Position numbers and translations under genes: made by a program. A stretch of DNA of 64,000 nt from Dehalococcoidia bacterium (GTDB lineage Bacteria > Chloroflexota > Dehalococcoidia > SHYB01): NCBI GenBank assembly GCA_965261455.1, contig OZ253453.1:3447372-3511371 (forward strand). Direction: 5' to 3'. Numbering within the stretch: the first letter of the stretch is position 1; every line of letters begins with the position of its first letter. This document shows, piece after piece, positions 8,123-28,048 of the stretch. Under the pieces are notes generated by a model. That model made no database searches. It saw only the letters and a list, made by a program, of their open reading frames with translations, and was not told the DNA's origin.

Positions 8123-8356
8123 CCCCAGTTTGCGGAGGGTGGGGGCGGTGCTATACTAGCCGCCCGGTTCAACGGAGCGTTCGGCCCAGCCTCCGACTTC
8201 GAGAGATGGGGGCTGGGATGCGCTTCGGTTTGGCTCCCACCGGCAAATCCGAAGATGGCGTTTTGGCGTTAGGTTAGGCGAAGTCCTGAGCACGCTCCTA
8301 TGGCTCGATAGACGGCGGCCTCGGTGCTCCGCATTTCCGTTAGGGATGGTGCATTG

Positions 8357-9598
8357 ATGGACCGTCGCGTCGCGGTCACCGGCCTCGGCCTTGTTACGCC
8401 GCTGGGGCTCGACCTAATGTCGACGTGGCGAGCGGCCCTGGCGGGCGTCTCGGGCGTCGATACCATCGCGGGGTTCGACGCTGAGTCCTTCGCCACGCGC
8501 ATCGCCGCCGAGGTGAAGGGCTTCGACCCGCTGGCCTGCATGGAGCGCAAGGAGGCCAAGAACACCGACCGCTTCGTGCAGTTTGCCACCGCGGCGGCGC
8601 TGGAGGCGCTGGCTCACGCCGGTCTGGACGTCGAGGGCAACGCCGACGAGGTGGGGTGCATCGTGGGCAGCGGCATCGGTGGGATCGGCACGCTGTCGAA
8701 GCAGGTGACGACGTTGAACGAGCGCGGGCCGAGCCGTGTCTCGCCATTCTTAGTCCCCATGATGATCGCGGACATGGCGTCGGGGCACCTCTCGATACGT
8801 CTGGGCGCCAAGGGGCCGAACTTCTGCACGACTTCGGCCTGTTCGAGCGGGGCCGACGCCATCGGCGTCTCGGCGGAGATGATCCGGCGAGGCGAGGCGA
8901 CGGCCATGATCACCGGCGGCGCCGAGGCCTGCGTGGTCCCCATCGGACTCGCCGGTTTCTCTTCCGCCGGCGCGCTCTCCAAACGCAACGATGAGCCGAC
9001 CAAGGCCTCCCGGCCGTTCGACGCCGACCGCGACGGGTTCATCCTGGGCGAGGGCTCGGGGATCTTGATTCTCGAAGAGATGGAGCACGCCAAGGCGCGG
9101 GGCGCCACGGTGCTCGCCGAAATGGCGAGCTACGCGGCCACCGCCGACGCGCATCACATCACGCAGCCCGCGGAGCGCGCCGAGGGCGCGGCGCGGGCGA
9201 TGCGCCACGCCCTGAAGAAGGCCGGACTCGGCGTCGACGAGATCGACTACATCAACGCGCACGGCACCTCGACGCCGCTTAACGACAAGTTCGAGACCAT
9301 GGCGATCCACGACGTCTTCGGCGACGAGGCGCCCAAAATCCCGATCAGCTCGACGAAGTCGATGACGGGGCACCTGATCGGTGCCGCGGGAGCGGTCGAG
9401 GCCGCCTTCTCGGTGCTGGCGATCCGGGACGGCGTCGTCCCGCCGACGATCAACCTCGAGACGCCCGACCCCGACTGCGATCTGGACTACACGCCGCACA
9501 TCCCCAAGCGCGGGCCGGTGCGCGCGGTGCTCTCGAACTCGCTGGGCTTTGGCGGCCACAACAGCTGCCTTGTCTTCCGCCGCTACGAGGGGTCGTGA
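8357..9598 (+). CDS. fabF: Beta-ketoacyl-ACP synthase II
   Basis: MDRRVAVTGLGLVTPLG… with active-site Cys in …TACSSGADAIG and His motifs NAHGTSTPLND / SMTGHLIGAAG. Confidence 0.9.
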   Translation: MDRRVAVTGLGLVTPLGLDLMSTWRAALAGVSGVDTIAGFDAESFATRIAAEVKGFDPLACMERKEAKNTDRFVQFATAAALEALAHAGLDVEGNADEVGCIVGSGIGGIGTLSKQVTTLNERGPSRVSPFLVPMMIADMASGHLSIRLGAKGPNFCTTSACSSGADAIGVSAEMIRRGEATAMITGGAEACVVPIGLAGFSSAGALSKRNDEPTKASRPFDADRDGFILGEGSGILILEEMEHAKARGATVLAEMASYAATADAHHITQPAERAEGAARAMRHALKKAGLGVDEIDYINAHGTSTPLNDKFETMAIHDVFGDEAPKIPISSTKSMTGHLIGAAGAVEAAFSVLAIRDGVVPPTINLETPDPDCDLDYTPHIPKRGPVRAVLSNSLGFGGHNSCLVFRRYEGS

Positions 9599-11325
9599 GC
9601 CTGAGCACGAGGCCGAAGCGCCTCTGGCGAACGCATCCCGAGCCTCCCGATTCCTACTTCGCGCGCATGGCGGCCTATCCGCCCATCGCGGCGCGAGTGC
9701 TCTACAACCGTGGGATCCGTGGCCCCGAGGAGGCGAAGGACTTCCTCGACGCGTCGCTTCCCGCGGGCGAGAGCGGGTCGCTGCTCCATGAGTTCCGGCC
9801 CGCAGTCGAACGGTTGGCGCGCGCCGTCGAACGTGGCGAGCGCATCGCCGTCTACGGCGACTTCGACGCCGACGGCGTCACCTCGGCGGCCATACTGACC
9901 AAGGGGCTGCGCGGCCTCGGCGTGACGGTCATGCCCTACATCCCAGACCGTGTTGCCGAAGGGCACGGCCTCAACGAGGGGGCGGTCCGCCTGCTGGCGG
10001 AGTCGGGCGCGGACCTGATCGTCACCGCCGACTGCGGGATCACCGACGCGGACGAGGTGGCGCTCGCCGCGGAGCTGGGCGTCGATACGATCGTGACCGA
10101 CCATCACTCGCCGCCGGCGCGCCTTCCCGACGCGGCGGCGGTGGTGAACCCCAAGCTGCCGGGCCAACCGGCGGCGTACCGCGAGCTCGCCTCCTGCGGC
10201 GTGGCCTACAAACTGATTGAGGCGCTGTACGAGCACGCGGGCAAGACGGTCGGCGAATCTCTTTCGGGGCTCGCCGCGCTGGGGACCATCGCGGACATGG
10301 CGCCGCTGACCGGCGGGAACCGCGCGCTGGTGCGCCAGGGGCTCGCCGCGCTGAACGGCGCCTGCGACGCGGGAATCAAGGCGCTCATCGAGGTGTCGAG
10401 GATCCGGGCTGGACGGGTCGACGCGGAGGCGGTCTCATTCTCCCTGGCGCCCCGCATCAATGCGCCGGGGCGCATGGGCCACGCTGAAGACGGCTACAAG
10501 CTGCTCACCGCCGAGTCGGCGGACGAGGCGGCGGCGCTGGCCAAGACGCTCGACGCGAAGAACCTGGAGCGGCGGACGGTGACGGCGGCGATTGTGGCCA
10601 AGGTGCTGGAGCGGCGGGCGGCGTTCGAGTCGAGCCCAATTATCATCCTTGGGGACGCGGACTTTCCGCCCGGCGTCGTCGGGCTGGCGGCGGGCAGGCT
10701 GACCGATCAGTACTACCGGCCCGCCATCGTGTGCACGACCGGCCCGGAGGAGACGCGAGGAAGCTGCCGGAGCATCCCGGAGTTCGACATGATCGAGGCG
10801 CTGCGGCGCGTGGACGGGGAGGCGGACGGCATCTTCCTGCGCTACGGCGGCCACGCGCAGGCGGCGGGCTTCACCGTCGCGGCGGACCGGTTCGCCGAGC
10901 TTACCGAACGTCTGACCGCGGTGGCCGCCGAGGAGTTGCGCGGGGTCGAGCTCGCCCCGCGCCTGGAGATCGACGCCGAGGTCCCGCTCGACCGGATCGA
11001 CGGCGCGACGATCAAGGCGCTGCGCCGGATGGAGCCCTACGGGCAGGGGAACCCTCCGCCGACCTTTCTGGCCCGCGGCGTCGAGGCACTCGACGCGCGC
11101 CCGCTAGGTGCAAGCGGGGACCACCTGCGGTTGAAGATCCGCGCCGGCAGGGTGACCTGGAACGCGATCTACTTCAACGCGGCGGTCCCGGCGGAGGCGG
11201 CGCGCGGCGCGCTCGACCTCGTCTTCGCGCTCAAGGTTGACCGCTTTGGGGAGCACGAGACGCTCCGGCTTGAAGTGCTGGACCTGGCCCTGCACACCGC
11301 CGGAGTGCAGACGGCGATGCTGTAG
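9595..11325 (+). CDS. recJ: Single-stranded-DNA-specific exonuclease RecJ (DHH/DHHA1)
   Basis: 576 aa with DHH motifs VYGDFDADGVTS, DHH at TDHHSPP, and GGHAQAAG. Overlaps fabF by 4 nt. Confidence 0.9.
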   Translation: MSLSTRPKRLWRTHPEPPDSYFARMAAYPPIAARVLYNRGIRGPEEAKDFLDASLPAGESGSLLHEFRPAVERLARAVERGERIAVYGDFDADGVTSAAILTKGLRGLGVTVMPYIPDRVAEGHGLNEGAVRLLAESGADLIVTADCGITDADEVALAAELGVDTIVTDHHSPPARLPDAAAVVNPKLPGQPAAYRELASCGVAYKLIEALYEHAGKTVGESLSGLAALGTIADMAPLTGGNRALVRQGLAALNGACDAGIKALIEVSRIRAGRVDAEAVSFSLAPRINAPGRMGHAEDGYKLLTAESADEAAALAKTLDAKNLERRTVTAAIVAKVLERRAAFESSPIIILGDADFPPGVVGLAAGRLTDQYYRPAIVCTTGPEETRGSCRSIPEFDMIEALRRVDGEADGIFLRYGGHAQAAGFTVAADRFAELTERLTAVAAEELRGVELAPRLEIDAEVPLDRIDGATIKALRRMEPYGQGNPPPTFLARGVEALDARPLGASGDHLRLKIRAGRVTWNAIYFNAAVPAEAARGALDLVFALKVDRFGEHETLRLEVLDLALHTAGVQTAML

Positions 11326-11353
11326 CCCGCGCGTCCGGCCTGGGCGCGTGGGC

Positions 11354-12670
11354 TCATTCTTCGACGTGCAGGCCGATCTTCTCCAGGTCGCCGTTGATCT
11401 CTTCGATATTGGCGTAGGGGCCGATCTTCGTCGCGACCACGACGCCGTCGGCGTCGATGACGTAGGTCGAGGGGACGCCGAAGAGGCCATAGCCTTGGTC
11501 CGCGATCATGCGGCCGTCGTCGATGACGACGTTGAGGGCAAGGCCGATCTCGTCAAAGAAGGCGGTGACAGCCTCGCCGGTCTCGTCGAGATCGACGGCG
11601 AGGAGGGTGAGTTCGTCGCCGAGGGTGTCGTGGACTCTCTGTAAGTCCGGCATTTCGGCGCGGCAGGGCCCGCACCAGGTGGCCCAGAAGTTGACGATGA
11701 CGGGCTGACCGCGGAGTTCGGCGAGGCTGAACTCCTCGCCGTCGTCGGAGGTGAAGCGGAAGTTGGGGGCGAGCTTGCCGGGCACGGCGCCGGCCTCGCC
11801 GCCGGGGGTGTCGGCGAGCCCGAGGGACTGGTAGATGGTGAAGCCCTCGCTCGCGTCTAAGGGCCGCTCCACGGCCGGGGGAGCGCTCTCTAGGAAGGAG
11901 AAGTATTCGTTGAGCTTGGTCAGCTGGTTGAAGAAGATGAGGAGGCCGATGAGCACCATCAGGATGCCGCTGGCGACGGTGATCGCGGGGAGGTAGCGGT
12001 TCACCTTCTTGAAGATAGGCGTGATCTGGCCCAGTGCCGCACCGGTGATGAGGAACGGGATGCTGAGGCCGGCGGTGTAGAAGGCAAGCAGGATGGTGGC
12101 CTGGCCCGCGGCGCTCCAGGCGTTTAGGGAGTTGCCGGCCTCGTTGAAGGCGAGGGTGAGGATCGCGCCGAGGAGGGGGGTAATGCACGGCGTCCAGCCG
12201 ACGCCGAACGCGCCGCCGACGATGGTCGAGCGCCAGTACGAGGGTGGGGCGTCCTCGCCGCCGATGTGGATGCGGCGTTCGCGGAAGTAGATTCCGTCGA
12301 GCCAGTTGGTAAGCGGTCCCAGCACGGTCCGCAGCACCGGGAGCTTGAATACCCCCGCCATGTAGAGGCCCACGGCTATGAGCAGGGCGCCGGCGATGCG
12401 CGCGATCAGGTCGCCATAGCCGCCGGCGGTCCCTCCGAGGACGCCGACGGTCGCGCCGAGAATGATGAATGGCACGGAAAAGCCGATGACGAAGCCGAGG
12501 CTGTGGAGGAACGTCGTCCGCCCGCCCTGGAGTTGTCCGTCCTTGATGGAGACGCCGGAGAGATGGCCCAGGAAGATCGGAACGAGCGGCAGGACGCACG
12601 GGGAGACGAAGGAGGCGATTCCCCCGACGAAGGCTACGATCAGGGCGACGAGTGAGAGGTCTTCGATCAT
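11354..12670 (-). CDS. Fusion of a cytochrome c biogenesis CcdA/DsbD-like membrane domain with a C-terminal TlpA/ResA-type thioredoxin
   Basis: N-terminal TM domain carries the Cys pair SPCVLPLVP. C-terminal domain carries WATWCGPCRAEMP (CxxC). Confidence 0.8.
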   Translation of the reverse strand: MIEDLSLVALIVAFVGGIASFVSPCVLPLVPIFLGHLSGVSIKDGQLQGGRTTFLHSLGFVIGFSVPFIILGATVGVLGGTAGGYGDLIARIAGALLIAVGLYMAGVFKLPVLRTVLGPLTNWLDGIYFRERRIHIGGEDAPPSYWRSTIVGGAFGVGWTPCITPLLGAILTLAFNEAGNSLNAWSAAGQATILLAFYTAGLSIPFLITGAALGQITPIFKKVNRYLPAITVASGILMVLIGLLIFFNQLTKLNEYFSFLESAPPAVERPLDASEGFTIYQSLGLADTPGGEAGAVPGKLAPNFRFTSDDGEEFSLAELRGQPVIVNFWATWCGPCRAEMPDLQRVHDTLGDELTLLAVDLDETGEAVTAFFDEIGLALNVVIDDGRMIADQGYGLFGVPSTYVIDADGVVVATKIGPYANIEEINGDLEKIGLHVEE

Positions 12671-12719
12671 GGTGGTGGACCCAGGTATGGGGTTATACGA
12701 CTCCGCGGATCAGATGGCT

Positions 12720-15128
12720 CTACCGATCATACGCGTGCGTCACGGCGGCGCCGTCGGCGTGCATGGCCGCGATCTCGTCGGCGGTGAAGCCGGTCTCTCT
12801 CAGGATGTTCGTGGTGTGCTCGCCCAGGTAGCAGTTCGCGCCCTCGTTGGCCGGCGTCAGGGAGAAGTCGAACGGCGCGGCGTGGCGCAGGTAGGCGCCG
12901 AGCGACGGGTGCTCGACTTGCTTCATCAGCCCAGCTTCGAGCGCCCAGGGCGTCTCTGTCATGAAGCGCCCGGTGTCGCGGTCGGCGAGGCGGACGCAGG
13001 GAACGCCGGCGGGCAGGAGGCGCCGCTCCCAGTCCTCGGCGGAGGCTTCGGCGAAGGCGAGTTCGAGTATCGCGGCGATTTGGGCGTCATGCTCGCGGCG
13101 ACCCTGCTTGGTCGAGAAGGCGGGGTCGGCGAGTCGCCCGCCGAGGGCGCCGGCGAGGGCGGCCCATTCGTCGTCCTGAGGGCAGGCCAAGAAGACCCAG
13201 CCCTCGCCGCAGCGGTAGATGCGGTAGACCGCGCTCAACCCGTTGAAGTCGGTGTCGGCAAGCGGGCGCTCGGGTTTGCCATCGTACTGGAGCGCGTCGT
13301 CGGCGTTGGCGTAGAGGTTGGCGCTCAGCATCGACGTCTCGATGTACTGGCCCTCGCCGGTGCGGGCGCGGTGGTAGAGGCCCATGAGGATGGCGGCGCA
13401 GTGGGTGAGGGCGGCGACGGGATCGGGGTTGGACTCGTTGGCGCGCCGGAGGATGTCGCTCATGGCCTTTACGCCGTCGAGGTCAAGCGGGACGTCGGAG
13501 GCCGTGGGCAGGTCGCCGCCAAGCTGGTACCGAGGCCCGCCGGTGATGGCGGCGGCGATGGGGTGGAAGCCGGTGCGGTGGGAGTGCGGCCCCGTCGAGC
13601 CGTAGGCCCCGGCGTAGAGGTAGACGATGCCGGGCCGGAGACGCTTGGCCGTTTCGTAGTCCATGCCCAACCGCTCGGGGACGCCGGGCCGGAAGTTGTG
13701 GAGAAGGACGTCGGTGTTTTCGATCAGCTTATGCAGGACGCGCCGCCCCCGTTCGTCCTTCAGGTCGATGGCGAGGGACTCCTTGCCCTGCAGGGTCTTG
13801 CACATGCGGGGGAAGCTCATGATGCGGTAGGCGTCGCCGGTGACAGGCTCGACCTTGATGACGCGGGCGCCGAGGTCGGCGAGGAGAGCGGTGGCGTAGG
13901 GGCCGGCGATGTAAGAGGCGAATTCGAGGACCTGCAAGCCTTCGAGCGGGGACCGCGGCGGGGTCGAGGTGGGCCGCGGCGCGGGGGACGCGGCGTGGTC
14001 GAGGCCGGCGAGAACGGCGGCGGTGTCGGCGCCGAGACGTGGCGCCGGGCCGCCGGCCTCCAGCGGAGTCGTGCCGAACTTGGCCAGGACGCCGAGCTGT
14101 TTGGTCGCGCCCGCGTCGGGATCGGGGAGGTCGATCACGTTGCGGTTGTGAATCGCTTGGGAATGCCGCATCCCTTCTTGCGTGGTGCGGAAGGGCTCGG
14201 CGGCGATGTCGTTCTCCATGAAGATGCGCATCCACTCGTCGCGGTCTTTTTCGAGCAGGGCTGCGAGGCAGAGGCGCTGGAGTTCGCGCAGGTCATCCCC
14301 TTTAGCGAAGACGGGCTGGTTGGCGTAGCGCTCGTCTTGGAGGGTCCAGTCTAGTCCTAACTGCTGCAGGAAGTTGAACAGCGTTTGGGGTGTGAGGTTG
14401 CCGAACTGGATCCAGTGGCCGTCTTTCGATCTGCCGGTCATGTAGGGCGGGACGCCGCCACCGTTGTAGCGGAACGGCCCGTTGAACTCGCCGCGGTCAT
14501 AGAGCTGCCAGCCGACGAAGTAGCTCAGGTCGAAGTTCATCGTCGCTTTGAGCAGGCTGGTCTCGACGCGCTGGCCTTGGCCGCAGCGCTCGCGGACGAC
14601 GAGGGCGGCGAGAATGGCCTGGACGGTGTTGAGCGCCGTGCCGTAGCTGGTGAGGAACTGGGCCGGGTAGGCGGGACGGTCGGCGCCGGTGGTCTCGTAG
14701 TGGGTGTCCATGCGTCCGGCGACGGCGTTGACGACGCCCTCGTAGGCGCGGACGTTGGCATAGGGGCCGGTGGAGCCGAAGCCGGTGAGGTCGGCGTAGA
14801 CGAGGCCGGGGTTGCGGGCGGCGAGGCCGTCGTAGTCCATGCCGAGACGGGCGGCCACGCCCGGGCGGAAGCCGGCGAGGACGACGTCGGCGGTGTCGGC
14901 GAGGCGCTGGGCGTCGGTGCGGCCTTCCTCTGTCTTGAGGTCGAGGACGACGCTGCGCTTGCCGCGGTGCCACATGAGGGCGGCGTAGTGCTCGCGGCTG
15001 GGATCGCCCTCCGGCGGCTCCACCTTAACGACCTCGGCGCCCGCGTCGGCGAGGACCATGGTGGCCAAGGCGCCGGTAAAGCTACGGGTGAGGTCGATGA
15101 CTCGCAGGCCCTGGCAAGGGGTCGGCAT
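12720..15128 (-). CDS. Tandem fusion of two family-III CoA-transferase (CaiB/BaiF) domains
   Basis: 802 aa. Two N-terminal Rossmann signatures, LRVIDLTRSFTGALATMVLADAGAEVVKVEPP and LQVLEFASYIAGPYATALLADLGARVIKVEPV, lie about 400 aa apart. Each is followed by the conserved Asp region. Confidence 0.85.
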   Translation of the reverse strand: MPTPCQGLRVIDLTRSFTGALATMVLADAGAEVVKVEPPEGDPSREHYAALMWHRGKRSVVLDLKTEEGRTDAQRLADTADVVLAGFRPGVAARLGMDYDGLAARNPGLVYADLTGFGSTGPYANVRAYEGVVNAVAGRMDTHYETTGADRPAYPAQFLTSYGTALNTVQAILAALVVRERCGQGQRVETSLLKATMNFDLSYFVGWQLYDRGEFNGPFRYNGGGVPPYMTGRSKDGHWIQFGNLTPQTLFNFLQQLGLDWTLQDERYANQPVFAKGDDLRELQRLCLAALLEKDRDEWMRIFMENDIAAEPFRTTQEGMRHSQAIHNRNVIDLPDPDAGATKQLGVLAKFGTTPLEAGGPAPRLGADTAAVLAGLDHAASPAPRPTSTPPRSPLEGLQVLEFASYIAGPYATALLADLGARVIKVEPVTGDAYRIMSFPRMCKTLQGKESLAIDLKDERGRRVLHKLIENTDVLLHNFRPGVPERLGMDYETAKRLRPGIVYLYAGAYGSTGPHSHRTGFHPIAAAITGGPRYQLGGDLPTASDVPLDLDGVKAMSDILRRANESNPDPVAALTHCAAILMGLYHRARTGEGQYIETSMLSANLYANADDALQYDGKPERPLADTDFNGLSAVYRIYRCGEGWVFLACPQDDEWAALAGALGGRLADPAFSTKQGRREHDAQIAAILELAFAEASAEDWERRLLPAGVPCVRLADRDTGRFMTETPWALEAGLMKQVEHPSLGAYLRHAAPFDFSLTPANEGANCYLGEHTTNILRETGFTADEIAAMHADGAAVTHAYDR

Positions 15129-15349
15129 AGGCGCTTCCGTTCAGGCGATGAACGCTCGACGAACGAGTATAGCATTCCGGCCCCAGCCGAGGCCCACTCG
15201 CGAGGGTGACGCGCTTCGATGGCCTTTGGCGGTTGCGGCGTTTGGTTGGCGGAAGGCGCACCGGGGCCAAGGGGGCGATCCCATTTAAAGAGTGAGAAGG
15301 AGCGGCCGGCGCGCCGGGGAGGGCGGCCGGCCCCACGAGCCCGGCGGGA

Positions 15350-15622
15350 TCAATGGGCCGAGCTTGCTCTCCCAGTCTCTCTTTCCAACTCGCGCAGCCA
15401 CGCTTCGCACAGGGCGTCGATGGCAGCGAAGGGTTCTTCAAGGCGTTCGCCGAAGGGCAGTTTCGCCTCGCGCAAGCGCCGACGGAGTCTCTCGTCGTCG
15501 AAATAGGAGACACGGGTATCTCGACGACCGGCGCTCGTTGTGCCTACGCGCTTGAGTTCCCGGAGGAAGGCGTGTTCCCACCGATTCCCGGGGAGTTCCC
15601 GTGGCTTATCGCGCGCGCCCAT
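15350..15622 (-). CDS. Hypothetical small protein
   Basis: Internal ATG of track ORF 15350..15691 (MGARDKPRELPGNRWEHAFLRELKRV…). Helical-looking sequence with no recognised family. Confidence 0.3.
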   Translation of the reverse strand: MGARDKPRELPGNRWEHAFLRELKRVGTTSAGRRDTRVSYFDDERLRRRLREAKLPFGERLEEPFAAIDALCEAWLRELERETGRASSAH

Positions 15623-15795
15623 GGCCAACCGGCGACCTCCGAGAGGAGAGGCCGTCAGTGGTTGGCCGGCACCGCTGGGCTGGGTGTGCATGAGGACATA
15701 GTAGGGGGTGGGGGCGGGGATGCGGAAGGGGCGGATGGCAGAGCGAGGGGGGCAGGGGCGTCATGCTATGATCCGGCGATGGCGGAGATAGGTCG

Positions 15796-16374
15796 GTGAA
15801 GGATACGGTCGACCTCGCGCGGCTCGGCGAGTGGCTGCGCCGCCGCGAGCGGTGGCGGGGCGCCGAGGGCGAGCGTCCCCGCGCCGCGGTGCTGATTCCG
15901 CTGTACGGCCCGGGCCCGGACTTCCGCGTCATCTACACGGTGCGCACGCAAGAGGTCGAGCACCACAAGGGCGAGATATCGTTCCCCGGCGGGGGCGTCG
16001 AGCCTGCCGACGAGTCGCTGGAGCACACGGCGCTCCGCGAGACCCACGAGGAGGTCGGCATCGCGCCCGCCGACATCACCCTCCTTGGGCGCTTGGACGA
16101 CATCATCACGATCTCGGACTTTCTGGTCACACCGGTGGTGGGGCGCGTCGAGGTGTTCCCCTACGCCTTCGCGCCGGCGCCGCTGGAGGTGGCGGAGGTG
16201 CTCGAAGTCCCCCTGTCGCACCTCCGGGACCCCGCGAACATTGAGGGGCATCCCAATCCACCCCCCGGACGGTCCCGCGCGAAGTTCCCCGCCTACCGCT
16301 TCGGCGAGCACCTGATCTTCGGCGCCACCGCGCTGATGACGACGTACCTTCTGCGCGCGCTCGCGGAGGGGTAG
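15796..16374 (+). CDS. NUDIX hydrolase, CoA-pyrophosphatase-like
   Basis: Nudix box GEISFPGGGVEPADESLEHTALRETHEEVGI. Length and layout resemble NudL-type CoA pyrophosphatases. Confidence 0.8.
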   Translation: MKDTVDLARLGEWLRRRERWRGAEGERPRAAVLIPLYGPGPDFRVIYTVRTQEVEHHKGEISFPGGGVEPADESLEHTALRETHEEVGIAPADITLLGRLDDIITISDFLVTPVVGRVEVFPYAFAPAPLEVAEVLEVPLSHLRDPANIEGHPNPPPGRSRAKFPAYRFGEHLIFGATALMTTYLLRALAEG

Positions 16375-16450
16375 GGGGTAGGGGGCCCAAGGCCTTTCTC
16401 GCAACTTGCTGGGCGCCCAACTGGCGCAGTCTTCAGAATGAGGTGAACCC

Positions 16451-17431
16451 GTGCCAGGCAAGAAGCGCCCATTCCTGCGAACGGCTTTCGCAAAGGCCCT
16501 CCAGTCCCACATGCAAACGTGGCGTGGCGATATTGGCAAACGTCCGCCGATGTGGGAGGAGTGGACCGAGGGAATCCATCCCAACTATCGAGGCTTAGCC
16601 GAGGAGACCCGGCGCGCCGATTCGGTGAAACTTCATAGTCACATCTCCGCGCTCATCAGTTCCCAGGCGTTTGCGTTCAATCTCTTCCTGCCGTTCCGGG
16701 AGGGGAAGCGAGGGCGGCTTTCCGAACGCATCGGCGAAATGGTCGGCGCCCGGCTGACCATTGATAAGGTGCGTTTCGAGTTTGTGCCCCCCGGTGAGTT
16801 GCTGTGTGAATTGGATGGCGCATACCCCGCCGCCGAACCCGCTACGGTGGTTGACGTAGTGCTGTGGGGATGGCTGGAGAATGGTCGCCGCGCTGCCGTC
16901 TTAGTCGAGGTCAAACTGAGTGAGAGAACGTTCTCAGATTGCAGCGGGTACATTAGCAAACACAACGAGCGTCAAGACGTCTGCGAGAACGCGAGGTTAT
17001 TCTTTAATGTGCGACCGTCCACGGCTAATGATCCAGACCGGAACGCCTGCTATATCCGCAGACCGAAGGGGAAGCAGCGGGACTGGCGCTATTGGGAGAT
17101 CTTCAGCAGGAGCTACGGCAGTGTTCGGGACGCCTTCCCCGGCGCGGAACTCGGCGGACGGTGTCCCTTCGCCCGTGACCTGTATCAGCCTATGCGAAAT
17201 CTCGCCATCGCCCGGGGTCTCGAACAGGAGGATATGGTCGAGAAGGCGTGGTTCGCGCTCTGCCTGCACGACAGGAACCCCGACATTCCCAAACATTGGG
17301 AAGAGTGGACAAGCCTTCTACCCGACCCATCTATGGCTCCATGTCTCCCTGCGTCGGAGATCGTCAGCGTCGGCGAAGCCGAGGGGCTGAACGGGTGGGC
17401 GGAATACATGCGCGAGCGCTATCAACTCTAG
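16451..17431 (+). CDS. Uncharacterised protein with PD-(D/E)xK nuclease-fold motifs (gene 1 of a two-gene module)
   Basis: 326 aa. Motif …VVDVVLWGWLENGRRAAVLVEVKLSE (D … E-V-K) is preceded by a helix ending FRE. Visibly lower G+C than the flanks. Confidence 0.6.
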   Translation: MPGKKRPFLRTAFAKALQSHMQTWRGDIGKRPPMWEEWTEGIHPNYRGLAEETRRADSVKLHSHISALISSQAFAFNLFLPFREGKRGRLSERIGEMVGARLTIDKVRFEFVPPGELLCELDGAYPAAEPATVVDVVLWGWLENGRRAAVLVEVKLSERTFSDCSGYISKHNERQDVCENARLFFNVRPSTANDPDRNACYIRRPKGKQRDWRYWEIFSRSYGSVRDAFPGAELGGRCPFARDLYQPMRNLAIARGLEQEDMVEKAWFALCLHDRNPDIPKHWEEWTSLLPDPSMAPCLPASEIVSVGEAEGLNGWAEYMRERYQL

Positions 17432-17438
17432 GAGGCCG

Positions 17439-18392
17439 ATGATGACGACGCCATACTACAACCGCGCTCCGTCGCCCCACTTGCAGGAGCTTCTGATGCC
17501 GGGAGGGCCTCTCTCGTGGCTCGTCGAGCTCAACGAGAGGAAAATTAGCGGCCGCGCATTCGACGTGCACTTCCGCAGCGGCGGCGAGGTTCACGTCTAC
17601 CACGGAGGGACAAGACTCCTCAAGGTGGAGAGGCTCAAATGGCCCAAGGGCTATGTGACGCTAACGGCAAATGATGAGTACAAGAAACAGCCATGTGCGA
17701 AGGGGCTCTTCCGGCGGCGGCGAATCGACGACCCAAAACTCCGAGAGGCTGCCGAAGCCTATCTCCGCGACGTGAAGATCGGGCCACGGTGGACTGAAGG
17801 GGAAGGGGCCATCCAGATGCTGTGGTCGCGGGTAACGAAGCCTTGGACGCCATTCGACCGTGAGGCCGTTCTGGGTGGTGCGTCCACACAATATCAGCAG
17901 ACTGCCAAGGTCGATGCGGCGCTAGATGAATTGATGGACATCTATACGGCCCATCAACATGCGGCCGGGCGGAAAAGATGGGCGAAGCCCAAGAAGAGCG
18001 GCAAGGAAGTGGACCAACTCGCGGTCGACTCGGATAGGCGCTTGGTGCTGATCGAAATCAAGGATGCTTCCAACCGGACTGCCGAGGTGTATTACGCGCC
18101 GTTCCAGCTTCTGCAGTACATCTGGGAGTGGCACGGCGCGCTCGGTGCGGTGGGGGCCGACCTGCACAAGCTGATTGACGCTCGCGTGGCGGTCGGTCTG
18201 ACGCCGCCCGGTGTTACCCGACTCACAGGCGACATACGAGCCGCCGTTGGATTTGGCCCCGATAGTCGGAGCAATGAAGTGAGGCGCCGCTACGGCATAG
18301 TCTTGGGCATCGTCAATAAACATCTCCCTCCCGGCGTCGGCCCCATAGAGACGTGGTCGATCACGGAGAACGGCCCGTGCCGAGTGGCGTGA
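17439..18392 (+). CDS. Uncharacterised protein with PD-(D/E)xK nuclease-fold motifs (gene 2 of a two-gene module)
   Basis: 317 aa. Motif …VDQLAVDSDRRLVLIEIKDASNR (D … E-I-K). Begins 8 nt after gene 1. Lower G+C. Confidence 0.6.
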   Translation: MMTTPYYNRAPSPHLQELLMPGGPLSWLVELNERKISGRAFDVHFRSGGEVHVYHGGTRLLKVERLKWPKGYVTLTANDEYKKQPCAKGLFRRRRIDDPKLREAAEAYLRDVKIGPRWTEGEGAIQMLWSRVTKPWTPFDREAVLGGASTQYQQTAKVDAALDELMDIYTAHQHAAGRKRWAKPKKSGKEVDQLAVDSDRRLVLIEIKDASNRTAEVYYAPFQLLQYIWEWHGALGAVGADLHKLIDARVAVGLTPPGVTRLTGDIRAAVGFGPDSRSNEVRRRYGIVLGIVNKHLPPGVGPIETWSITENGPCRVA

Positions 18393-18800
18393 GCATGCCT
18401 CGCTGAGGTGGAGGCGTAGGGGTTGGGAGCGCTTCGGGCGCCCGCGCGCCGCAGGCGCGCGCCCTCTCTTGGTCTCGCCCTAGAGAAACCTTGCGTAACC
18501 TCGTCGCGGAGGGAGCGGGCGCCCACGAGGGGCGCCCCTACGGGAGGGATGGATTCCCGCGAACGCGGGAATGACGGATATGGAGCAGAGGGGAGGGCGA
18601 TTCGCGAATCGCCCCTACGGGGAGCGCGGCGCGGGTTGGCGGGCTTCGATGGGCTTTGGTGGTTGCGAGGGTGCCCCTCATCTCAATCTTCTCCCGTGGG
18701 GAGAAGAGGCAAGACCTCCCGGCCCCGCCCATGCTTGCCCGTGGGCGGTTGTGCAGAGGTCTCCGTTGGGAGAGGGGGTAAGACTTCACCCCGCCGCGGT
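18393..18800. repeat. Cluster of mosaic intergenic palindromic repeat modules (families A/B/C)
   Basis: Contains gggcgcccctacgggagggatggattcccgcgaacgcgggaatgacggatatgg (module B) and cttcgatgggctttggtggttgcgagggtgcccctcatctcaatcttctcccgtggggagaagaggc (module C). Both recur elsewhere in the window. Track ORFs here are artefacts. Confidence 0.8.
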
Positions 18801-19783
18801 CAGGCTTGGCCGTGCTCGCGCTTTAGGGGGAGGGCGACTTCGTTGTAGAAGCGTTCCAGGGCGGTGTAGTCGTAGGGGTGGAGGGCTTGGACGGCGAAGT
18901 GGGTAAAGCCGTTGGCGATGTGCTCGCGGATGAGGGCGCTCATGTCGTCGGGGGTGCCGAGCATGTGGGTGCGGCGGAGGTCTTCGAGGGGGCGGTCGCC
19001 GATGGTGGAGCGTGAGCGCTCTTCGCGCCGGTGCTCGAGGAAGCGGGTCACGTCGGCGGGGTCGTCAGTCATGTGGATGTTGAGGAGCATGAGCGTCTTT
19101 TCGATGGAGTCGTAGTCGCGGCCCTCGGTCTGGCAGTGGCGGCGGAGGGCGCCGAGCTTGCGGGCGGCCTCGTCGGGGGTGGCGATGAAGTTCCAGGCGT
19201 CGGCGTAGCGGGCCACGTAGCGGGCGGTGAGCTGCTCGCCGCCGCCGCCGATCCAGATGGGGATATCGCCGTTGACGGGCTTGGGCTCGCAGATCGCGTC
19301 GTCGATCTGGTAGTAGCGGCCCTTGAACGACGGGCGCTCCTCCGTCCAGAGGGCGCGCATGATCTGGACGGCCTCGCCCATGCGATGCACCCGCTCGGCG
19401 GGCTTGGGGAAGTCGAAGCCGTACATGGCGTGCTCGGGCTGGTGCCATCCCGACCCGATGCCCATGTTTAGCCGCCCGCCGCTTATGTGGTCGATGGTGA
19501 CGGCCATCTTGGCGAGGAGCGCGGGGTTGCGGTAGCCGTTGCCGGTGATCATCACGCCGCAGCGGGCGCTCCGGGTGGAGGCGGCGAGCGCCGCGAGCGC
19601 GGTCCAGCCCTCGAAAACGGGGAGTTCGGGGCCGGGCAGGATCGAGGGGGTGACGTGGTCCGAGGTCCACAGGCTGTCGAAGCCGAGGTCGTCGGCGAAG
19701 CGCCAGACGCGGAGGAGCTCGTCCCAAGGCGCGCCCTCGGTGAGCGTTTCGAGTCCGAAGCGGAGGGGGTGGATGGTGGTCAA
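18800..19783 (-). CDS. LLM-class (luciferase-like) flavin/F420-dependent oxidoreductase
   Basis: 327 aa with TIM-barrel LLM signature (…FDSLWTSDHV…, GGRLNMGIGSGW). Confidence 0.85.
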   Translation of the reverse strand: MTTIHPLRFGLETLTEGAPWDELLRVWRFADDLGFDSLWTSDHVTPSILPGPELPVFEGWTALAALAASTRSARCGVMITGNGYRNPALLAKMAVTIDHISGGRLNMGIGSGWHQPEHAMYGFDFPKPAERVHRMGEAVQIMRALWTEERPSFKGRYYQIDDAICEPKPVNGDIPIWIGGGGEQLTARYVARYADAWNFIATPDEAARKLGALRRHCQTEGRDYDSIEKTLMLLNIHMTDDPADVTRFLEHRREERSRSTIGDRPLEDLRRTHMLGTPDDMSALIREHIANGFTHFAVQALHPYDYTALERFYNEVALPLKREHGQA

Positions 19784-19802
19784 GGGTGGGCTCCCAAGGG
19801 GT

Positions 19803-20495
19803 TCAGCGGCCGCCGGTCATCATGTCGCGGAAACCGTCGAGGGTGAAGCCGGGCGACTTGCAGTAGTCGATGATGCGGCGCTCGCGCTCCTCGACCTTCC
19901 GCGCCGCTTCGGGAAGCTCGCGCGCGGCCTCGATGGGGATGTTGGTAACGCCGTGCTCGTCGCCGTGGAGGAGGTCGCCGGGCTTCACGACGAGCCCGCC
20001 CACCTCGACGGAAACGCCGACGTCGATCAGGTGGTGGTAGGCGTGGGAGACGAGGACGCAGGAGGCGAAGGCGTGGAAGGGCATGGCCTCCATCTCGGGG
20101 AGGTCGCGGACGCCGCCGTTGGTGATGGTGCCCACGCAGCCGAGTGCCTTGAAGATATTGCCGTTGACCTCCCCCCAGAAGGAGCCGATGGGGTTGGGGT
20201 AGTCCATGTCCTGGATGACGAGCACCTTGGGGCCGGGCGTGGCGGCGACGTGCTCCCAGAGCTCGGTGACGCGGGTGCGGGGCTTGGGACTCGGCGGCAT
20301 CCGGGCGCTGATGATCGCGGTGCAGGCGTAGGCGACCAGAGGGTCGAGGTCCGGAAAGAGGCAGTTGATCTCCGGCCCCATGAAGCCTTCGGAGCGGGGG
20401 CGAAGGTCGAGGGTCTCGATGGCGTTGCAGACGGTGGGGCTGGTGATCTGCCGGAGCGCCTCGATCTCGTCGGCGGTGAGGGGGGCGTCGGTCAT
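19803..20495 (-). CDS. RraA-family protein (RNase E inhibitor / 4-hydroxy-4-methyl-2-oxoglutarate aldolase-like)
   Basis: 230 aa. Motifs …VLVIQDMDYPNPIGSFWGEVNGNIFKALGCVGTITNGGVRD… are typical of the RraA/MenG-like fold. Confidence 0.75.
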   Translation of the reverse strand: MTDAPLTADEIEALRQITSPTVCNAIETLDLRPRSEGFMGPEINCLFPDLDPLVAYACTAIISARMPPSPKPRTRVTELWEHVAATPGPKVLVIQDMDYPNPIGSFWGEVNGNIFKALGCVGTITNGGVRDLPEMEAMPFHAFASCVLVSHAYHHLIDVGVSVEVGGLVVKPGDLLHGDEHGVTNIPIEAARELPEAARKVEERERRIIDYCKSPGFTLDGFRDMMTGGR

Positions 20496-20499
20496 GGGT

Positions 20500-20944
20500 T
20501 GTCCTTCCCTCTCTCAATCTCTCCCAGAGGGAGAGAGGTTTAAGGTGCTCTCCCAGGGGGTTTAAGGTGCTCTCCCTAGGGGGAGAAAGGTGCTCTCCCA
20601 GGGGGAGAGAGGCTTATGGTGGCCCTCTCTCAGTCTCTCTCAGAGGAGACCTTTACGTAACCCTTGTCGCGAGGGAACGGGCGCCCACTAGGGGCGCCCC
20701 TACGGGAGGAGATGGATTCCCGCTTGCGCGGGAATGACGGATGGGGGCGGGGCCGGGCACTCAGAAGGCGAGAGTGGTGCGCTTCGATGGGCCTTGGTGG
20801 TTGTGAGGGGGCCCCTCATCTCAATCTTCTCCCGGGGGGGAGAAGAGGCCGGAGGGATGGGATGGATTCCCACTTGCGCGGGAAAGACGGATATGGGCGG
20901 GTCTTGCATGAGGTTTCCAGAGGGAGAGGCTTACGGTGTGGCGG
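20500..20944. repeat. Cluster of mosaic intergenic palindromic repeat modules (families A/B/C)
   Basis: Several copies of ccctctctcaatctctcccagagggagagagg (module A). Also module B (…atggattcccgcttgcgcgggaatgacgg…) and module C (cttcgatgggccttggtggttgtgagggggcccctcatctcaatcttctccc…). Confidence 0.8.
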
Positions 20945-21697
20945 CTAGAGGCGGCGGTCCTCGCCGCCGTCGATGAGGAGCACCTGCCCGGTCATGAAGT
21001 CGCTGTCGCGGGAGGCGAGGAAGACGAGGGCGCCCTGGAGGTCCTGGGGGGTGCCGAGGCGGCGCAGGGGCATGCGGGAGACGAGGTGGTCGAGTATTTG
21101 GGAGTCGATGGTGACGCGGGTGGACTCGGTGTCGATGGGGCCGGGGGCGATGCAGTTGACGTTGATGTTGTCTGGGCCGAGCTCGCTGGCGAAGCCGCGG
21201 GTGAGCCCGACGACGGCGAGCTTGGAGAGGACGTAGGGGCTGGAGCCGGCGACGTAGGCGGCGCCGGAGGACTGGAAGATGATCTTGCCGCCGCCGCGCT
21301 CGCGCATGGAAGGGACGACGGCGCGCGTCATCAGCATCTGGCCGGTCATGTTGACCGCCATGAAGTGCTCGAAATAGTCGAGATCGACAGTGCTGAAGGT
21401 GTCGGTGCGCATGCTGTGGTAGATGGCGCCGTTGTTCACGAGAATGTCGATGCAGCCGAAGCGGTCGACGACGGCGCCGGCGAGATCGAGGCAGCTCTGC
21501 TCTTGGGCGAGGTCGAGGGGCAGGTAGGTGGCCACGCCGCCGAGCTCGTTGATCTCCTCGGAGACCTGCTGGCCGGTATCGGGGTTGATCTCGGCGACGA
21601 CGACCTTTGCGCCCTCGTTGGCCAGGGTCTTGGCGTACTCCCGCCCGATGCCCTGGCCGGCGCCGGTAACGATGGCGACCTTGTCTTCGAGGCGCAT
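20945..21697 (-). CDS. SDR-family oxidoreductase
   Basis: 250 aa with TGAGQGIG Rossmann motif and catalytic YxxxK. Confidence 0.85.
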   Translation of the reverse strand: MRLEDKVAIVTGAGQGIGREYAKTLANEGAKVVVAEINPDTGQQVSEEINELGGVATYLPLDLAQEQSCLDLAGAVVDRFGCIDILVNNGAIYHSMRTDTFSTVDLDYFEHFMAVNMTGQMLMTRAVVPSMRERGGGKIIFQSSGAAYVAGSSPYVLSKLAVVGLTRGFASELGPDNINVNCIAPGPIDTESTRVTIDSQILDHLVSRMPLRRLGTPQDLQGALVFLASRDSDFMTGQVLLIDGGEDRRL

Positions 21698-21852
21698 GTT
21701 GAGTGTCTGCTTGGTCTGTCTAGGAGTGGAGGCGGCGGCGCGATACTAGCACAGGGGCCTGGGCGGGGTGAAGGGAGCGAAATAGCTTGCTATGCTAAAG
21801 CGAATCGACTAGTCTTAAGCCTAGTCAGCGGTGGCACTGCGGGAGGAAAAGT

Positions 21853-22113
21853 ATGGGCAAGGCGTGGCAGGTCCAAGACGCTAAGGCGAGGTTCAGCGAG
21901 TTTCTTGAAGCCAGCCTGGCGGATGGGCCGCAGATCGTGACTCGACGAGGCGTGGAAACGGCGGTGCTTCTTCCCATCGAGCAGTGGCGGAGGTTGGAGA
22001 AGATAACGAAGCCGGACCTGAAGGAGTTGTTGCTCGCGCCGGACGCGCGAACCGACTCGCTCACGCCGCCGCGCCGTGAGCATCGTCACCGAACACCCTC
22101 GGCCATCGAGTAG
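21853..22113 (+). CDS. Type II antitoxin, Phd/YefM family
   Basis: 86 aa (MGKAWQVQDAKARFSEFLEASLADGPQIVTRRGVETAVLLPIEQWRRL). Ends 5 nt before the PIN toxin gene. Confidence 0.8.
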   Translation: MGKAWQVQDAKARFSEFLEASLADGPQIVTRRGVETAVLLPIEQWRRLEKITKPDLKELLLAPDARTDSLTPPRREHRHRTPSAIE

Positions 22114-25714: not shown

Positions 25715-28048
25715 CTAGGCGTTAAGGTAGCCGCGCAAGTCAGGGAATCGATACAGAAGTCGCTCTTTCTCCGACGCTGCATCGGCATCGTGGGGGTGTT
25801 CTTTCCCCCAGCTTATCAAAGACTGAGATAGCATCTTGAGAGAGCGATGCCGTTGATCGGCCTCTTGGTGAGCTTCACTGATGCGTGCCAGGCGCTCGTA
25901 GTTCAGCACGATAGCACGACATACCTGACTGCGGGACTGATATGGACCATGCTCGAACTCTTCCGGATCCGAGAGTGCATCCTTGAGATGAGTCTCCGCT
26001 TTACGTGCTTCTTGTATTGCTCGGTCGTACTGAACTTGTTGGTACAAGTCCTGAGCCAATCGGCTTCGAGCATATCCAGCCAGGAAGGAAAGCCGCTCGG
26101 AGGGGCCGACGTTCTTGAGGCCGTTTTCAGCAGACCGGGCTGCTGCAGTCCACTCTTGTCGATCACCCTCCATGCTTGACCAGTGCCTGTAGGTTTCCAT
26201 GTTTGAGGACTTAAACTTCGATGCCCGCTCGAAGTGGTAGCGGGCGTCGGTGTAACGGGGCTGCGGTTTCCAGGCTTTGTAAACCCAGCCTAGCATTCCA
26301 TGCAGGTCAGGGTTGTCGGGGTACACGTTCAAGGCGTTGAGAAGAGTCTCTCGGGCATCAGAGTGTTTGTCCAATTTCACTAGGCTGATGGCTTGCCTAA
26401 TATATTGGCCGATACGCCCACGGTCTGCAGGTGACGGTCGCGCCTTGTCCTTGAAGAGCTTGAGAGCGCTTGCTATGCGGCGAGTCAGGTCCGATCCTTC
26501 ATAGACGTCCCGCACCAGTTTTCGCGTGTTCGAATTCAGTGAAAACCTGGACTGTCCTTCGACGAGGTGCGGGGCAGGCAACAAGAATAACTCCTGTAGC
26601 TGCTCAACCGAGTCCTTGCATTCACTTTCCGATAGGTCAGCGACATCCTGTATTTCGGCCAGGGATATCTCTCCCGGATAGAGCGCGCAAGTCAGTAGTG
26701 CCTTCTGGGCTGGAGGTGAGAGCATGTCGAACTCTCTTCCCAAGGCATACCTACGAGCGTCCTCCCCTCCATTATCACGCCATTTATTTGTCGCCATATG
26801 AGGGGTCTCACCCACCTTGCACAAACGCAGCAAGTCTTGAACAAAGAGCGGGCTTCCTTCGCACACCTTCAAGATTTCACGGATGGTGGAACGTGTAAAT
26901 TGACTGGGTTCTAAACCGTACATAGCCACGCGGCTCTTGACAAACTCTATTCCGTCATTTTCAACCTCGAAACCCTTCACCTGTGTCCGTTCCATGGCAT
27001 AGCGAGCTCGGCGTGAGGTAAGCAGGAACTTTGACGGTGTCTTCGTGCGATTCAGAAAGAAGGATACCGCCTCGTCGCTTTCAAGAGAGTCTATGTCGTC
27101 AAGGATAACCAAAGCTGGTAGCAACGAGAGTGATTGACGACACTCGCCTTCTTTCTCTGGAATACCCATGCCTTCGATGTCGGGGCAACCATAGGCACGG
27201 AGGATACAGTCGATGGCGGAATCAAGATTCCAGAAATCCGGTGCTTCGATGTCGACGGTACGGCCTGCTTCGAACCGGCGAGCCTTGGCGCTCATCCAAA
27301 TGATGTATTGAAGGTCAGGAGGTGGATCTTGTGTCACTGACACAGCAAACTGGTAGGCGATGGCGGTTTTGCCTTTCCCTCCGTCGCCCGCCAATAGCCA
27401 GGCGCTGGAATAAGGATCGTTGACCCACTCATGTAGTTGTTGGAGCTCCGCTTTCCTACCGACGAATTGCAGCGCCACCGATTCTCGTGGTGGCAAGGTG
27501 TTCTCCAGCAATCTCTTCTCTGCTATAGCTGCGCTGTTGAATGCTATGCCGCTGATGGATTCGTAGAGAGTTAGAATCTGCTTAGCGGCTTCCATATCAA
27601 TATGGTCCAAGATACGCCTAGCAGAATCCAGCAACATGAGTGCGTCTTTGTCATCCACATCAGCTTCTGCTGGGTGTCCGACGATCGGATTCCGAAGGGT
27701 GGCCACAGTTCTTGCCCACCCAAGGACCGCTTGTCGCCTATCTTTTGTGGGAACTGGCGCCTCTTGATGACTGGGAAATAGGTCGTTGAAGTATTTCTCG
27801 AATAAGTTGAAGAAGTGATGCGCATCTAGCAGATCTGCATCATCCCTAAGTGGTGTCTCAAGTTCACCGGTCGCTCGGACCGTTGCAGCTTTTTCCTTGA
27901 TCCCGGGCCATTCCTTTTGGAATGATGCGGCAATCCTCGTTTGCCAGTCGCCCGGGTATTTTTCGCTCAGCATGTTGCGAATGTGGTTCACGACGGCATT
28001 GCGATAGATTCGGAGTCCGTCAAAGCAAATTGTGTTTGTGGAGGGCAT
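25715..28048 (-). CDS. Tripartite conflict-system-type protein: N-terminal Swt1-like HEPN RNase domain, STAND (NB-ARC-like) P-loop NTPase, C-terminal TPR repeats
   Basis: 777 aa. HEPN R-x5-H in …ATLRNPIVGHPAE…. Walker A LLAGDGGKGKTAIA, Walker B LVILDDIDSL, sensor LLTSRRA. TPR-like C-terminus (…LLNALNVYPDNPDLHGMLGWVYKAW…). Markedly lower G+C than the flanks. Confidence 0.8.
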   Translation of the reverse strand: MPSTNTICFDGLRIYRNAVVNHIRNMLSEKYPGDWQTRIAASFQKEWPGIKEKAATVRATGELETPLRDDADLLDAHHFFNLFEKYFNDLFPSHQEAPVPTKDRRQAVLGWARTVATLRNPIVGHPAEADVDDKDALMLLDSARRILDHIDMEAAKQILTLYESISGIAFNSAAIAEKRLLENTLPPRESVALQFVGRKAELQQLHEWVNDPYSSAWLLAGDGGKGKTAIAYQFAVSVTQDPPPDLQYIIWMSAKARRFEAGRTVDIEAPDFWNLDSAIDCILRAYGCPDIEGMGIPEKEGECRQSLSLLPALVILDDIDSLESDEAVSFFLNRTKTPSKFLLTSRRARYAMERTQVKGFEVENDGIEFVKSRVAMYGLEPSQFTRSTIREILKVCEGSPLFVQDLLRLCKVGETPHMATNKWRDNGGEDARRYALGREFDMLSPPAQKALLTCALYPGEISLAEIQDVADLSESECKDSVEQLQELFLLPAPHLVEGQSRFSLNSNTRKLVRDVYEGSDLTRRIASALKLFKDKARPSPADRGRIGQYIRQAISLVKLDKHSDARETLLNALNVYPDNPDLHGMLGWVYKAWKPQPRYTDARYHFERASKFKSSNMETYRHWSSMEGDRQEWTAAARSAENGLKNVGPSERLSFLAGYARSRLAQDLYQQVQYDRAIQEARKAETHLKDALSDPEEFEHGPYQSRSQVCRAIVLNYERLARISEAHQEADQRHRSLKMLSQSLISWGKEHPHDADAASEKERLLYRFPDLRGYLNA

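Follow-up and report, generated by a model that had tools for sequence, protein, structure and literature searches.

Here, a window of 64,000 nucleotides from the genome of a Dehalococcoidia bacterium (assembly GCA_965261455.1, contig OZ253453.1, positions 3,447,372 to 3,511,371 of the forward strand) was analysed with respect to a two-gene cassette encoding a pair of predicted nucleases, termed P1 and P2. Both genes are open reading frame (ORF) calls on the plus strand. The P1 gene (16451..17431) has a GTG start and encodes 326 aa, and the P2 gene (17439..18392) encodes a protein of an unnamed family with 317 aa, or 316 aa if translation begins at the second ATG at 17442, as is annotated in the relative P0001. 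A preliminary description of the window, made from the letters alone, had reported two ORFs of 326 and 317 aa on the same strand, which is correct, and a gap of 8 nt, which measures 7 nt. A Shine-Dalgarno-like GAGGTG (16440..16445, plus strand) is read 5 nt before the GTG start of P1. The AGGAGG Shine-Dalgarno of P2 (17430..17435, plus strand), likewise read from the sequence, lies 3 nt from the first and 6 nt from the second P2 ATG. It overlaps the TAG stop of P1 (17429-17431), and this arrangement indicates a translationally coupled operon. Equally tight P1-P2 junctions, of 7-25 nt or with an overlapping ATGA, are found at other loci. No promoter or terminator signal above shuffled expectation was detected by scanning, and an Rfam scan of window positions 15000-22000 gave zero matches. 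The module has a G+C content of 0.59-0.61 against 0.68-0.70 on both sides, and the low-GC pocket reported earlier is borne out by the comparison with 5 kb flanks (0.605 versus 0.675).

P1 scores 70.5 bits against Pfam PF22558 (REase-ARP) and 55.2 bits against PF20796 (PDDEXK_13), with a gathering cutoff of 27 for each, and both domains are precomputed on 120/120 listed P1 homologs. The initial statement that neither protein matches a nameable family is thus wrong for P1 but holds for P2, for which no library match was obtained. The active-site segment of P1 (VVDVVL...LVEVKLSE, codons D135 to K155; 16853..16915, plus strand) was followed through 121 sequences, in which the predicted catalytic residues D135 and K155 are present in all and E153 in 119. 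Five cysteines (C164, C178, C200, C238 and C271) are invariant and suggest a metal or Fe-S site. They also mark the window-type P1 as a subfamily of its own, for which the likeness to PDDEXK_13-type members is at the profile level only (BLASTP E 0.27). In structure comparison the nearest folds are those of Upx, the BspD6I subunits, FokI and NgoMIV. In the P1 of the window nine residues, VRPSTANDP, are inserted (17006-17038 of the window, about residues 186-196 of P1). Among the aligned homologs this insertion is confined to the window lineage and P0121, and its loop, of low model confidence, is situated between two of the five invariant cysteines.

No profile in PADLOC-DB 2.0.0 matched P1, and nothing was found when the literature was searched by the family names REase-ARP or PDDEXK_13. 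The TY-Chap2 domain, which was deposited together with REase-ARP, led to the meaning of 'ARP' in Iyer et al. 2022 (Viruses 14:1977; PMC9503650), in which host systems countering viral ADP-ribosylation were predicted. The parts of these systems are an ADP-ribosylglycohydrolase (ARG) core, Nudix-/WYL-helix-turn-helix (HTH) regulators, rhodanese-phosphatase or HD phosphatases, TY-Chap chaperones and ARPP. The 'previously unknown rapidly evolving REase' (restriction endonuclease) of that study, a variable effector there, is apparently the REase-ARP family. P1 is a member of this described family, which was thus independently predicted to be a conflict-system effector (PMC9503650).

P2, used alone or as a family profile, has no sequence match in Pfam, NCBIfam, PADLOC, PHROG or PDB, and the only PADLOC similarity is to PDC-S11 (E 0.025 over 27 residues). 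More than 300 homologs were found, and the family is considered rare because its cluster representatives number 653 among 1.84 billion. The AlphaFold2 model (pLDDT, the predicted local distance difference test score, 93.1; pTM, the predicted template modelling score, 0.91) has two domains. The N-terminal alpha/beta domain (17439..17774, plus strand, residues about 1-112), where Y7, R9 and D42 vary little or not at all, may sense DNA or a ligand. In a comparison of the whole model it resembles the folds of frataxin, YdhG and YjbR, and not the SRA, PUA or EVE readers of modified bases. The C-terminal NucS/RecB-like PD-(D/E)xK domain (17781..18389, plus strand, residues about 115-317) has NucS, XisH, Upx and Shedu SduA as its nearest folds, and no viral structural analogues of P2 were found at E <=0.001. 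The motifs of this domain are E122, D192, E206-x-K208 and Q223-xxx-Y227. As judged from the model, P2 has a restriction-endonuclease-like core fold with D...(D/E)xK and belongs to the PD-(D/E)xK superfamily, and its D, ExK and QxxxY residues make up a motif set of the RecB/NucS type.

Conservation of the P2 motifs was likewise followed through 121 sequences, and D192, E206, K208 and Q223 are present in each of them and Y227 in 117. The motif AVDSD...LVLIEIKD had been singled out in the preliminary description next to that of P1, and both are present. The first invariant acidic residue of P2 is, however, D192 in a VDQ motif, 14 residues ahead of E206, and not D197 (120/121). The acidic and lysine residues are near-invariant in the 121 sequences of each family, and profile searches place neither protein in a characterised housekeeping family, both in agreement with the reading first given to the pair.

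The occurrence of the two genes was surveyed with one genome per species, giving 38 usable loci, every host being a metagenome-assembled genome (MAG). The window-type P1 is adjacent or fused to P2 at 25 of these, as expected if the homologs belong together. The order P2-then-P1 always takes the form of a single ORF in the loci (L008, L021, L029), and fusions in both orders are found in the database (P0344 is P1-P2; P0282, P0372 and P0098 are P2-P1). The identity matrices of P1 and P2 are correlated (Mantel r 0.68, with 0/5000 permutations as high), and mean identity is 0.605 for P1 and 0.475 for P2, reflecting faster divergence in P2. P1 and P2 are co-inherited as one conserved unit. No paper on their pairing was found in the literature.

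P2 is also found with other nucleases. A beta-CASP metallo-beta-lactamase (MBL) nuclease of about 415 aa is encoded directly upstream of P2 at 7/38 loci, a sister nuclease of the PDDEXK_13 type is the partner at two (L006, L036), and the order N4/N6 methylase, SmaI-like REase, P2 is found at another two (L023, L031). The remaining two of the 38 are L015, which is flanked by insertion sequences (IS), and L013, with a weak DpnII-like match. When all flanking ORFs of the 38 loci were clustered, no family beyond P1, P2 and the MBL nuclease recurred. Methyltransferases, ATPases, helicases, integrases, transposases and components of ARG systems were none of them recurrent around P2, and 36/38 loci are methylase-free; the lack of a methyltransferase, ATPase or helicase partner described for the window extends in this way to the survey. 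P2, rather than the pair, is the constant element, and its partner nucleases are exchangeable. The preliminary description had proposed an undescribed conflict system built on the nuclease pair and had pointed to the neighbouring NUDIX gene. A co-inherited mobile unit is what was found, but the centring on the pair and the link to NUDIX had to be given up, and the defence role is one that we infer.

The beta-CASP gene, described as RNase J-like, occupies about 1.25 kb directly 5' of P2 and replaces P1 in its seven loci (L010, L017, L019, L020, L025, L035, L037), and such a gene is also seen at 3781-5031 of L026. In L023 (6142-8942) and L031 (6148-8942), P2 follows a complete Type II restriction-modification (R-M) pair of N6_N4 methylase and SmaI-like REase. 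The 6.3 kb block containing these is a duplicate with 93% identity inside one alphaproteobacterial genome, and an ankyrin-repeat gene lies just upstream of the L023 module.

The G+C content of the cassette is below that of its flanks at 24/31 loci, with a mean difference of -4.2 points (Wilcoxon p = 3e-4), and is uncorrelated with the G+C of the host (rho 0.20). The strongest deficits, 6.5 to 12.8 points under the flanks, belong to the beta-CASP cassettes. By composition the cassette is foreign in most hosts, and it is transferred horizontally. Two genomes hold two copies apiece. In one genome, two diverged copies have 77% similarity that is restricted to the gene and about 60 nt upstream and stops 2 nt past the stop codon. 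Neither a conserved motif in the flanks nor non-coding ends in common were found between loci, and flanking direct repeats are within positional controls at 35/36 loci, the exception being L010. Searches of 72,556 plasmids, 50,697 phage genomes and the IMG/VR contigs gave no match to P1/P2, and every copy found is therefore on a chromosomal contig.

Over the whole region, two loci, L001 and L041, have 97-99% identity with the window. The cassette is present at one site in these three strains and is older than their split. No empty site was found: both of these loci are occupied, the RraA neighbour gave no record, and the NUDIX relatives on metagenome contigs, at <=51% identity, are too distant for an empty-site comparison.

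Signs of decay are frequent. In L001 (9771-9804; a strain of ~97% identity) 577 nt corresponding to window 16669-17245 are deleted and the catalytic core of P1 is gone, yet P2 is intact with 98% protein identity. P1 is interrupted by a collagen-repeat/trypsin-like gene in L005 (6312-7325), P1 and P2 are separated by a GIY-YIG ORF in L038 (6580-6972), and a DDE transposase is found beside a P2 without partner in L015 (6817-7722). Apparent frameshifts are seen in P1 of L009, L016 and L027 and in P2 of L016 and L034, and P1 of L030 is split into two ORFs, some of which may be MAG assembly errors. Short adjacent fragments like P1 (residues 64-121, 40% identity) and P2 (residues 105-182, 38% identity) at 7816-8246 of L040, a MAG labelled Klebsiella pneumoniae, may represent a decayed remnant or a fused form that is distantly related.

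The NUDIX gene next to the module was considered as a part of the system and rejected, as it stands beside the pair only in the near-identical L001 and L041. Its product has a Nudix domain at residues 28-125 with an intact Nudix box and no detected HTH, and looks like a hydrolase; from this and the restricted occurrence the gene is regarded as a bystander. A degenerate copy of its terminal codons had been noticed past the module. Such a sequence exists (CTCGCGGAGG..GTAGGGG versus CTCGCTGAGGtggaggCGTAGGGG), but a duplication above chance does not follow from it. The highest-scoring ungapped alignment covers 18 nt with 83% identity and 20.6 bits, and the same flank compared with random positions gives a maximum of 25.3 bits and a median of 19.0, and a target-site duplication of the NUDIX 3' end was rejected on the grounds that 20.6 bits lies under the control maximum. 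The mobile-looking intergenic repeats that had been placed beside the module do form a dispersed family, represented by GGNGCCCCTCATCTCAATCTTCTCCC at window 18670-18695, 20808-20833 and 41505-41530, within longer GC-rich clusters (18400-18800 and 20550-20950). The repeat looks like a repetitive extragenic palindrome (REP) or a miniature inverted-repeat transposable element (MITE). Their supposed tie to the cassette is not upheld, and they appear unrelated to it since other cassettes share no flanking sequence with the window.

Our favoured reading, held tentatively and with somewhat less than even confidence, is that the locus is a P2-centred, methylase-independent two-nuclease conflict module that would serve in defence against incoming DNA. 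The evidence includes a co-inherited, coupled and often fused pair, two complete PD-(D/E)xK sites, exchangeable partners, horizontal transfer with decay of copies, the predicted effector role of the P1 family and the conflict-related genes in some neighbourhoods, and modularity of partners across loci (beta-CASP at seven, PDDEXK_13 at two, SmaI-like at two) is a hallmark of conflict systems. One may picture that P1 and P2 assemble as a hetero-oligomer, and that the N-terminal and NucS/Shedu-like domains of P2 would recognise a structural feature of foreign DNA and not its methylation. Recognition of DNA structure is suggested for P2 because its nearest structural relatives, NucS and Shedu, act in this way, and free ends, branched DNA, mismatched or otherwise unusual DNA are candidate targets. 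P1, with a putative cysteine-bound metal site, would supply the main or the second-strand cut, and the target would then be degraded. Discrimination would in this model be independent of self-modification, and for that reason no methyltransferase would be needed.

Several observations weigh against this interpretation. A host should be endangered by two nucleases that are constitutively active and have no methylase beside them, and no mechanism for discrimination between self and non-self is visible. The cassette neighbours are mostly metabolic genes, without dense defence islands. A physical interaction between P1 and P2 is suggested by the fusions only. P1 is conserved across phyla (mean identity 0.605), whereas rapid evolution had been ascribed to the REase-ARP family. 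Within PADLOC-DB 2.0.0 of 2023 only the SmaI-like partner is matched and P2 homologs reach PDC-S11 at motif level (E 0.001-0.025); for the homologs, the fused form and the MBL partner, matches in PADLOC are absent or at E 0.001 or weaker.

The first reading of P1/P2 as a candidate nuclease-based conflict module is partly supported, and is refined here to a putative methylase-independent nuclease defence built on the unnamed P2 family. With the ARG-centric systems (PMC9503650) P1 has in common the family, the D...ExK site and a variable, horizontally transferred context. In contrast, ARG, Nudix-/WYL-HTH, rhodanese-phosphatase/HD phosphatase, TY-Chap and ARPP genes are not recurrent beside P1/P2, and no ARG gene is present in the annotated neighbourhoods. 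A search for these defining core genes showed none of them, and the locus is therefore not an ARG-centric system. Fusions to TY-Chap2 and HD_4 occur only in the sister PDDEXK_13 clade.

Shedu SduA, encoded by one gene, is an anti-phage nuclease by which free ends of DNA are sensed (bioRxiv 10.1101/2023.08.10.552762). Its nuclease fold (PDB 8ps4) is near that of P2, but the N-terminal domain of SduA is different and SduA_C (PF14082; DUF4263) matches 1/25 P2 family members, at E 0.22. Shedu also acts alone, whereas P2 is partnered by a second nuclease, adjacent or fused. With NucS/EndoMS (PDB 2vld) P2 shares D, ExK and QxxxY, without a profile-level sequence relation: none of 25 family members matched in Pfam, and the family profile gave no match in PDB. 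The N-terminal domain of P2 is not shown to be NucS-like, P2 is sporadic while NucS is lineage-wide, and P2 needs a second nuclease. The heterodimeric Type IIS enzyme R.BspD6I, with a large nicking and a small subunit (PDB 2ewf, 2p14), resembles the P1/P2 pair. It comes with cognate methyltransferases, however, and P1/P2 do not, and the partner of P2 may be a beta-CASP enzyme, which is no REase.

The more classical nuclease systems differ more clearly. As opposed to McrBC, no NTPase gene recurs with P1/P2 and neither protein has an ATPase domain, and as opposed to Type II R-M a methyltransferase stands beside P2 at no loci but L023 and L031, where the partner is SmaI-like. Homing endonuclease genes differ in that the cassette sites vary among genomes, their flanks are unconserved and no empty allele was found. 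XisH works with XisI and a recombinase. This fdxN element excision-controlling factor (PDB 2okf) is a 129-residue single domain without sequence relation to P2, and P2 has no XisI-like partner.

Sister nuclease domains of the PDDEXK_13/REase-ARP type were found in-frame in genes of RNA polymerase (RNAP), which was unexpected. Three independent assemblies (L036, P0241, P0242) have the domain at the N-terminus of RpoB. In P0279 it is internal to RpoB and immediately precedes the conserved '...STPVFDG' segment, in P0243 it is internal to RpoC and follows the 'TFHIGG' segment, and in P0277 it forms the C-terminus of RpoC. The internal sites in RpoB and RpoC presumably lie in lineage-variable regions, with the E. 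coli subunits as reference. In L036 a single ORF of 2210 aa (6858-13487, plus strand) consists of REase, linker, P2-like domain, linker and RpoB, without an in-frame start codon ahead of RpoB. Direct repeats of 49-60 nt with 75-88% identity (7881-8009 and 8981-9165) bracket the P2-like segment and include the first rpoB codons in degenerate form (KKRSRKDSGKRSSI versus RKRIRKDFGKRPSI); they are a scar of duplication or insertion at the rpoB 5' end. The second nuclease domains of P0246 and P0242 were compared with P2 and gave hhalign probabilities of 33% and 0.4%, respectively. A 2024 survey of RNAP insertional domains makes no mention of nucleases (PMC11515920). Such fusions may point to a functional connection with RNA polymerase, or to selfish elements that insert in conserved genes without an intein.

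The alternative that survives best, although unlikely, is a selfish, homing-like nuclease cassette that would cut cassette-free DNA and be copied in by repair, with any defence being incidental. The minimal transferred unit, ending 2 nt past the stop codon and about 60 nt upstream of the gene, the lack of a recurrent integrase or transposase, the two genomes with two copies and the foreign composition would all fit such an element. The GIY-YIG ORF between P1 and P2 in L038, the in-frame sister nucleases at four different positions in rpoB and rpoC, and the repeat-flanked P2-like segment of L036 with its degenerate first rpoB codons point in the same direction. The site of the cassette differs, however, in nearly every genome, without a conserved flanking motif or target, and flanking duplications exceed controls in L010 only of 36 loci. 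The cassette is also stable at one site in the three strains of 97-99% identity. Homing needs one nuclease and not a co-evolving pair with interchangeable partners, and no copy was present in the phage or viral collections searched. Free-standing homing genes abound in phages.

Elements of self-propagation and of defence would be combined if P2 represented a 'nuclease-hub' class, an idea that is speculative and that we hold to be distinctly unlikely. A structure-sensing, NucS/Shedu-like nuclease would in that case license interchangeable primary nucleases (REase-ARP, PDDEXK_13, beta-CASP, SmaI-like) in a cassette that propagates itself through its nuclease activity. The sister clade may have entered RNA polymerase genes in-frame, giving beta and beta' subunits with a tethered restriction-fold nuclease, which could guard the RNAP that phages ADP-ribosylate.

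It is improbable that the module is of the toxin-antitoxin type, an addiction module in which P1 would be toxic and restrained by P2, or the reverse, and cells that lose the pair would be killed. The tight two-gene operon with coupled translation and the richness of the window and related loci in toxin-antitoxin pairs are compatible with addiction. P1 is apparently disrupted more often (L001, L005, L009, L016, L027, L030) than P2 (L016, L034), and losses of P1 would fit a costly P1 and a harmless lone P2, but some of these disruptions may be errors of MAG assembly. P2 is, moreover, unlike typical antitoxins in having 317 aa and a complete invariant nuclease site. P1 and P2 are fused into single polypeptides in both orders, which is unusual for toxin-antitoxin pairs, and pairing of one P2 family with four structurally unrelated nucleases is hard to reconcile with a specific inhibitor.

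In L023 and L031 P2 is linked to a SmaI-like R-M pair that is complete. This could also be taken to indicate that P1 and P2 are a heterodimeric orphan enzyme of Type II or Type IV, the methyltransferase of which is encoded elsewhere or which cuts modified DNA only. This seems quite improbable when 36/38 loci are devoid of a methyltransferase and no GTPase or AAA partner as in McrBC is found. The similarity of the P2 N-terminal domain to frataxin, YdhG and YjbR, and not to SRA, PUA or EVE, as seen with the whole model, may speak against a reader of modified bases as in the Type IV REases of the MspJI or PvuRts1I type, and a beta-CASP partner is ill-suited to a classical restriction enzyme. An accessory DNA-repair pair, in which a NucS-like structure-specific nuclease and a second nuclease would act on damaged, mismatched or cross-linked DNA, is very improbable, for although the alternative beta-CASP partner has a fold that includes the repair enzymes SNM1 and Artemis, and an AlkB-type 2-oxoglutarate-Fe(II) oxygenase adjoins the module in L017, the distribution is sparse and patchy (653 clusters/1.84 billion), transfer across phyla, host-foreign composition and frequent decay are evident, no assignment by sequence to NucS or another repair family was obtained, and the module is tied to Type II R-M in L023 and L031.

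The hosts of the 38 loci belong to Chloroflexota/Dehalococcoidia, Binatia, Alpha- and Gammaproteobacteria, Nitrospinota and Myxococcota. Names of the SB06xx_bin type match a set of MAGs with sponge-associated Entoporibacteria (PMC7883664), and from these names and the ankyrin-repeat gene by the L023 module we infer that most of the hosts are probably symbionts of sponges. Toxin-antitoxin, R-M, AAA+HNH, IS or Type ISP fragments are found <=10 kb away in the three neighbourhoods that were examined with annotation.

Other genes in the window deserve mention. A PhdYeFM antitoxin gene (21853-22113, plus strand) lies 3.5 kb from the module and is followed by a PIN-domain toxin in L001 and L041. A 777 aa NTPase of the STAND type (25715-28048, minus strand), with NB-ARC/AAA_16 and tetratricopeptide repeats (TPR), is encoded in the pocket with the lowest G+C (0.52-0.58) and is a candidate antiviral STAND protein. 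At 49259-50912 (minus strand), also in a low-GC pocket, a gene for an HTH and Peptidase_M78 (ImmA/IrrE-like) protein overlaps a DUF4411 gene, and the two are a candidate toxin-antitoxin-like or abortive-infection pair. A dCTP deaminase-like gene with a DCD/dUTPase fold (34844-35395, plus strand) is located in a further pocket with a G+C of 0.57-0.60.

If the pair acts in defence, its design would be that of a methylase-free two-nuclease system in which P2 is constant and combines with at least four unrelated nucleases, a design that is unrepresented in the 2023 version of PADLOC. If true, this would provide the first functional context for the P2 family, whose about 650 clusters are unannotated in the libraries searched, and would show the REase-ARP fold working outside the ADP-ribosylation-countering systems by which it was defined. 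In the hosts, uncultivated MAGs of several phyla, the cassette is a marker of gene exchange within what is probably a community of sponge symbionts.

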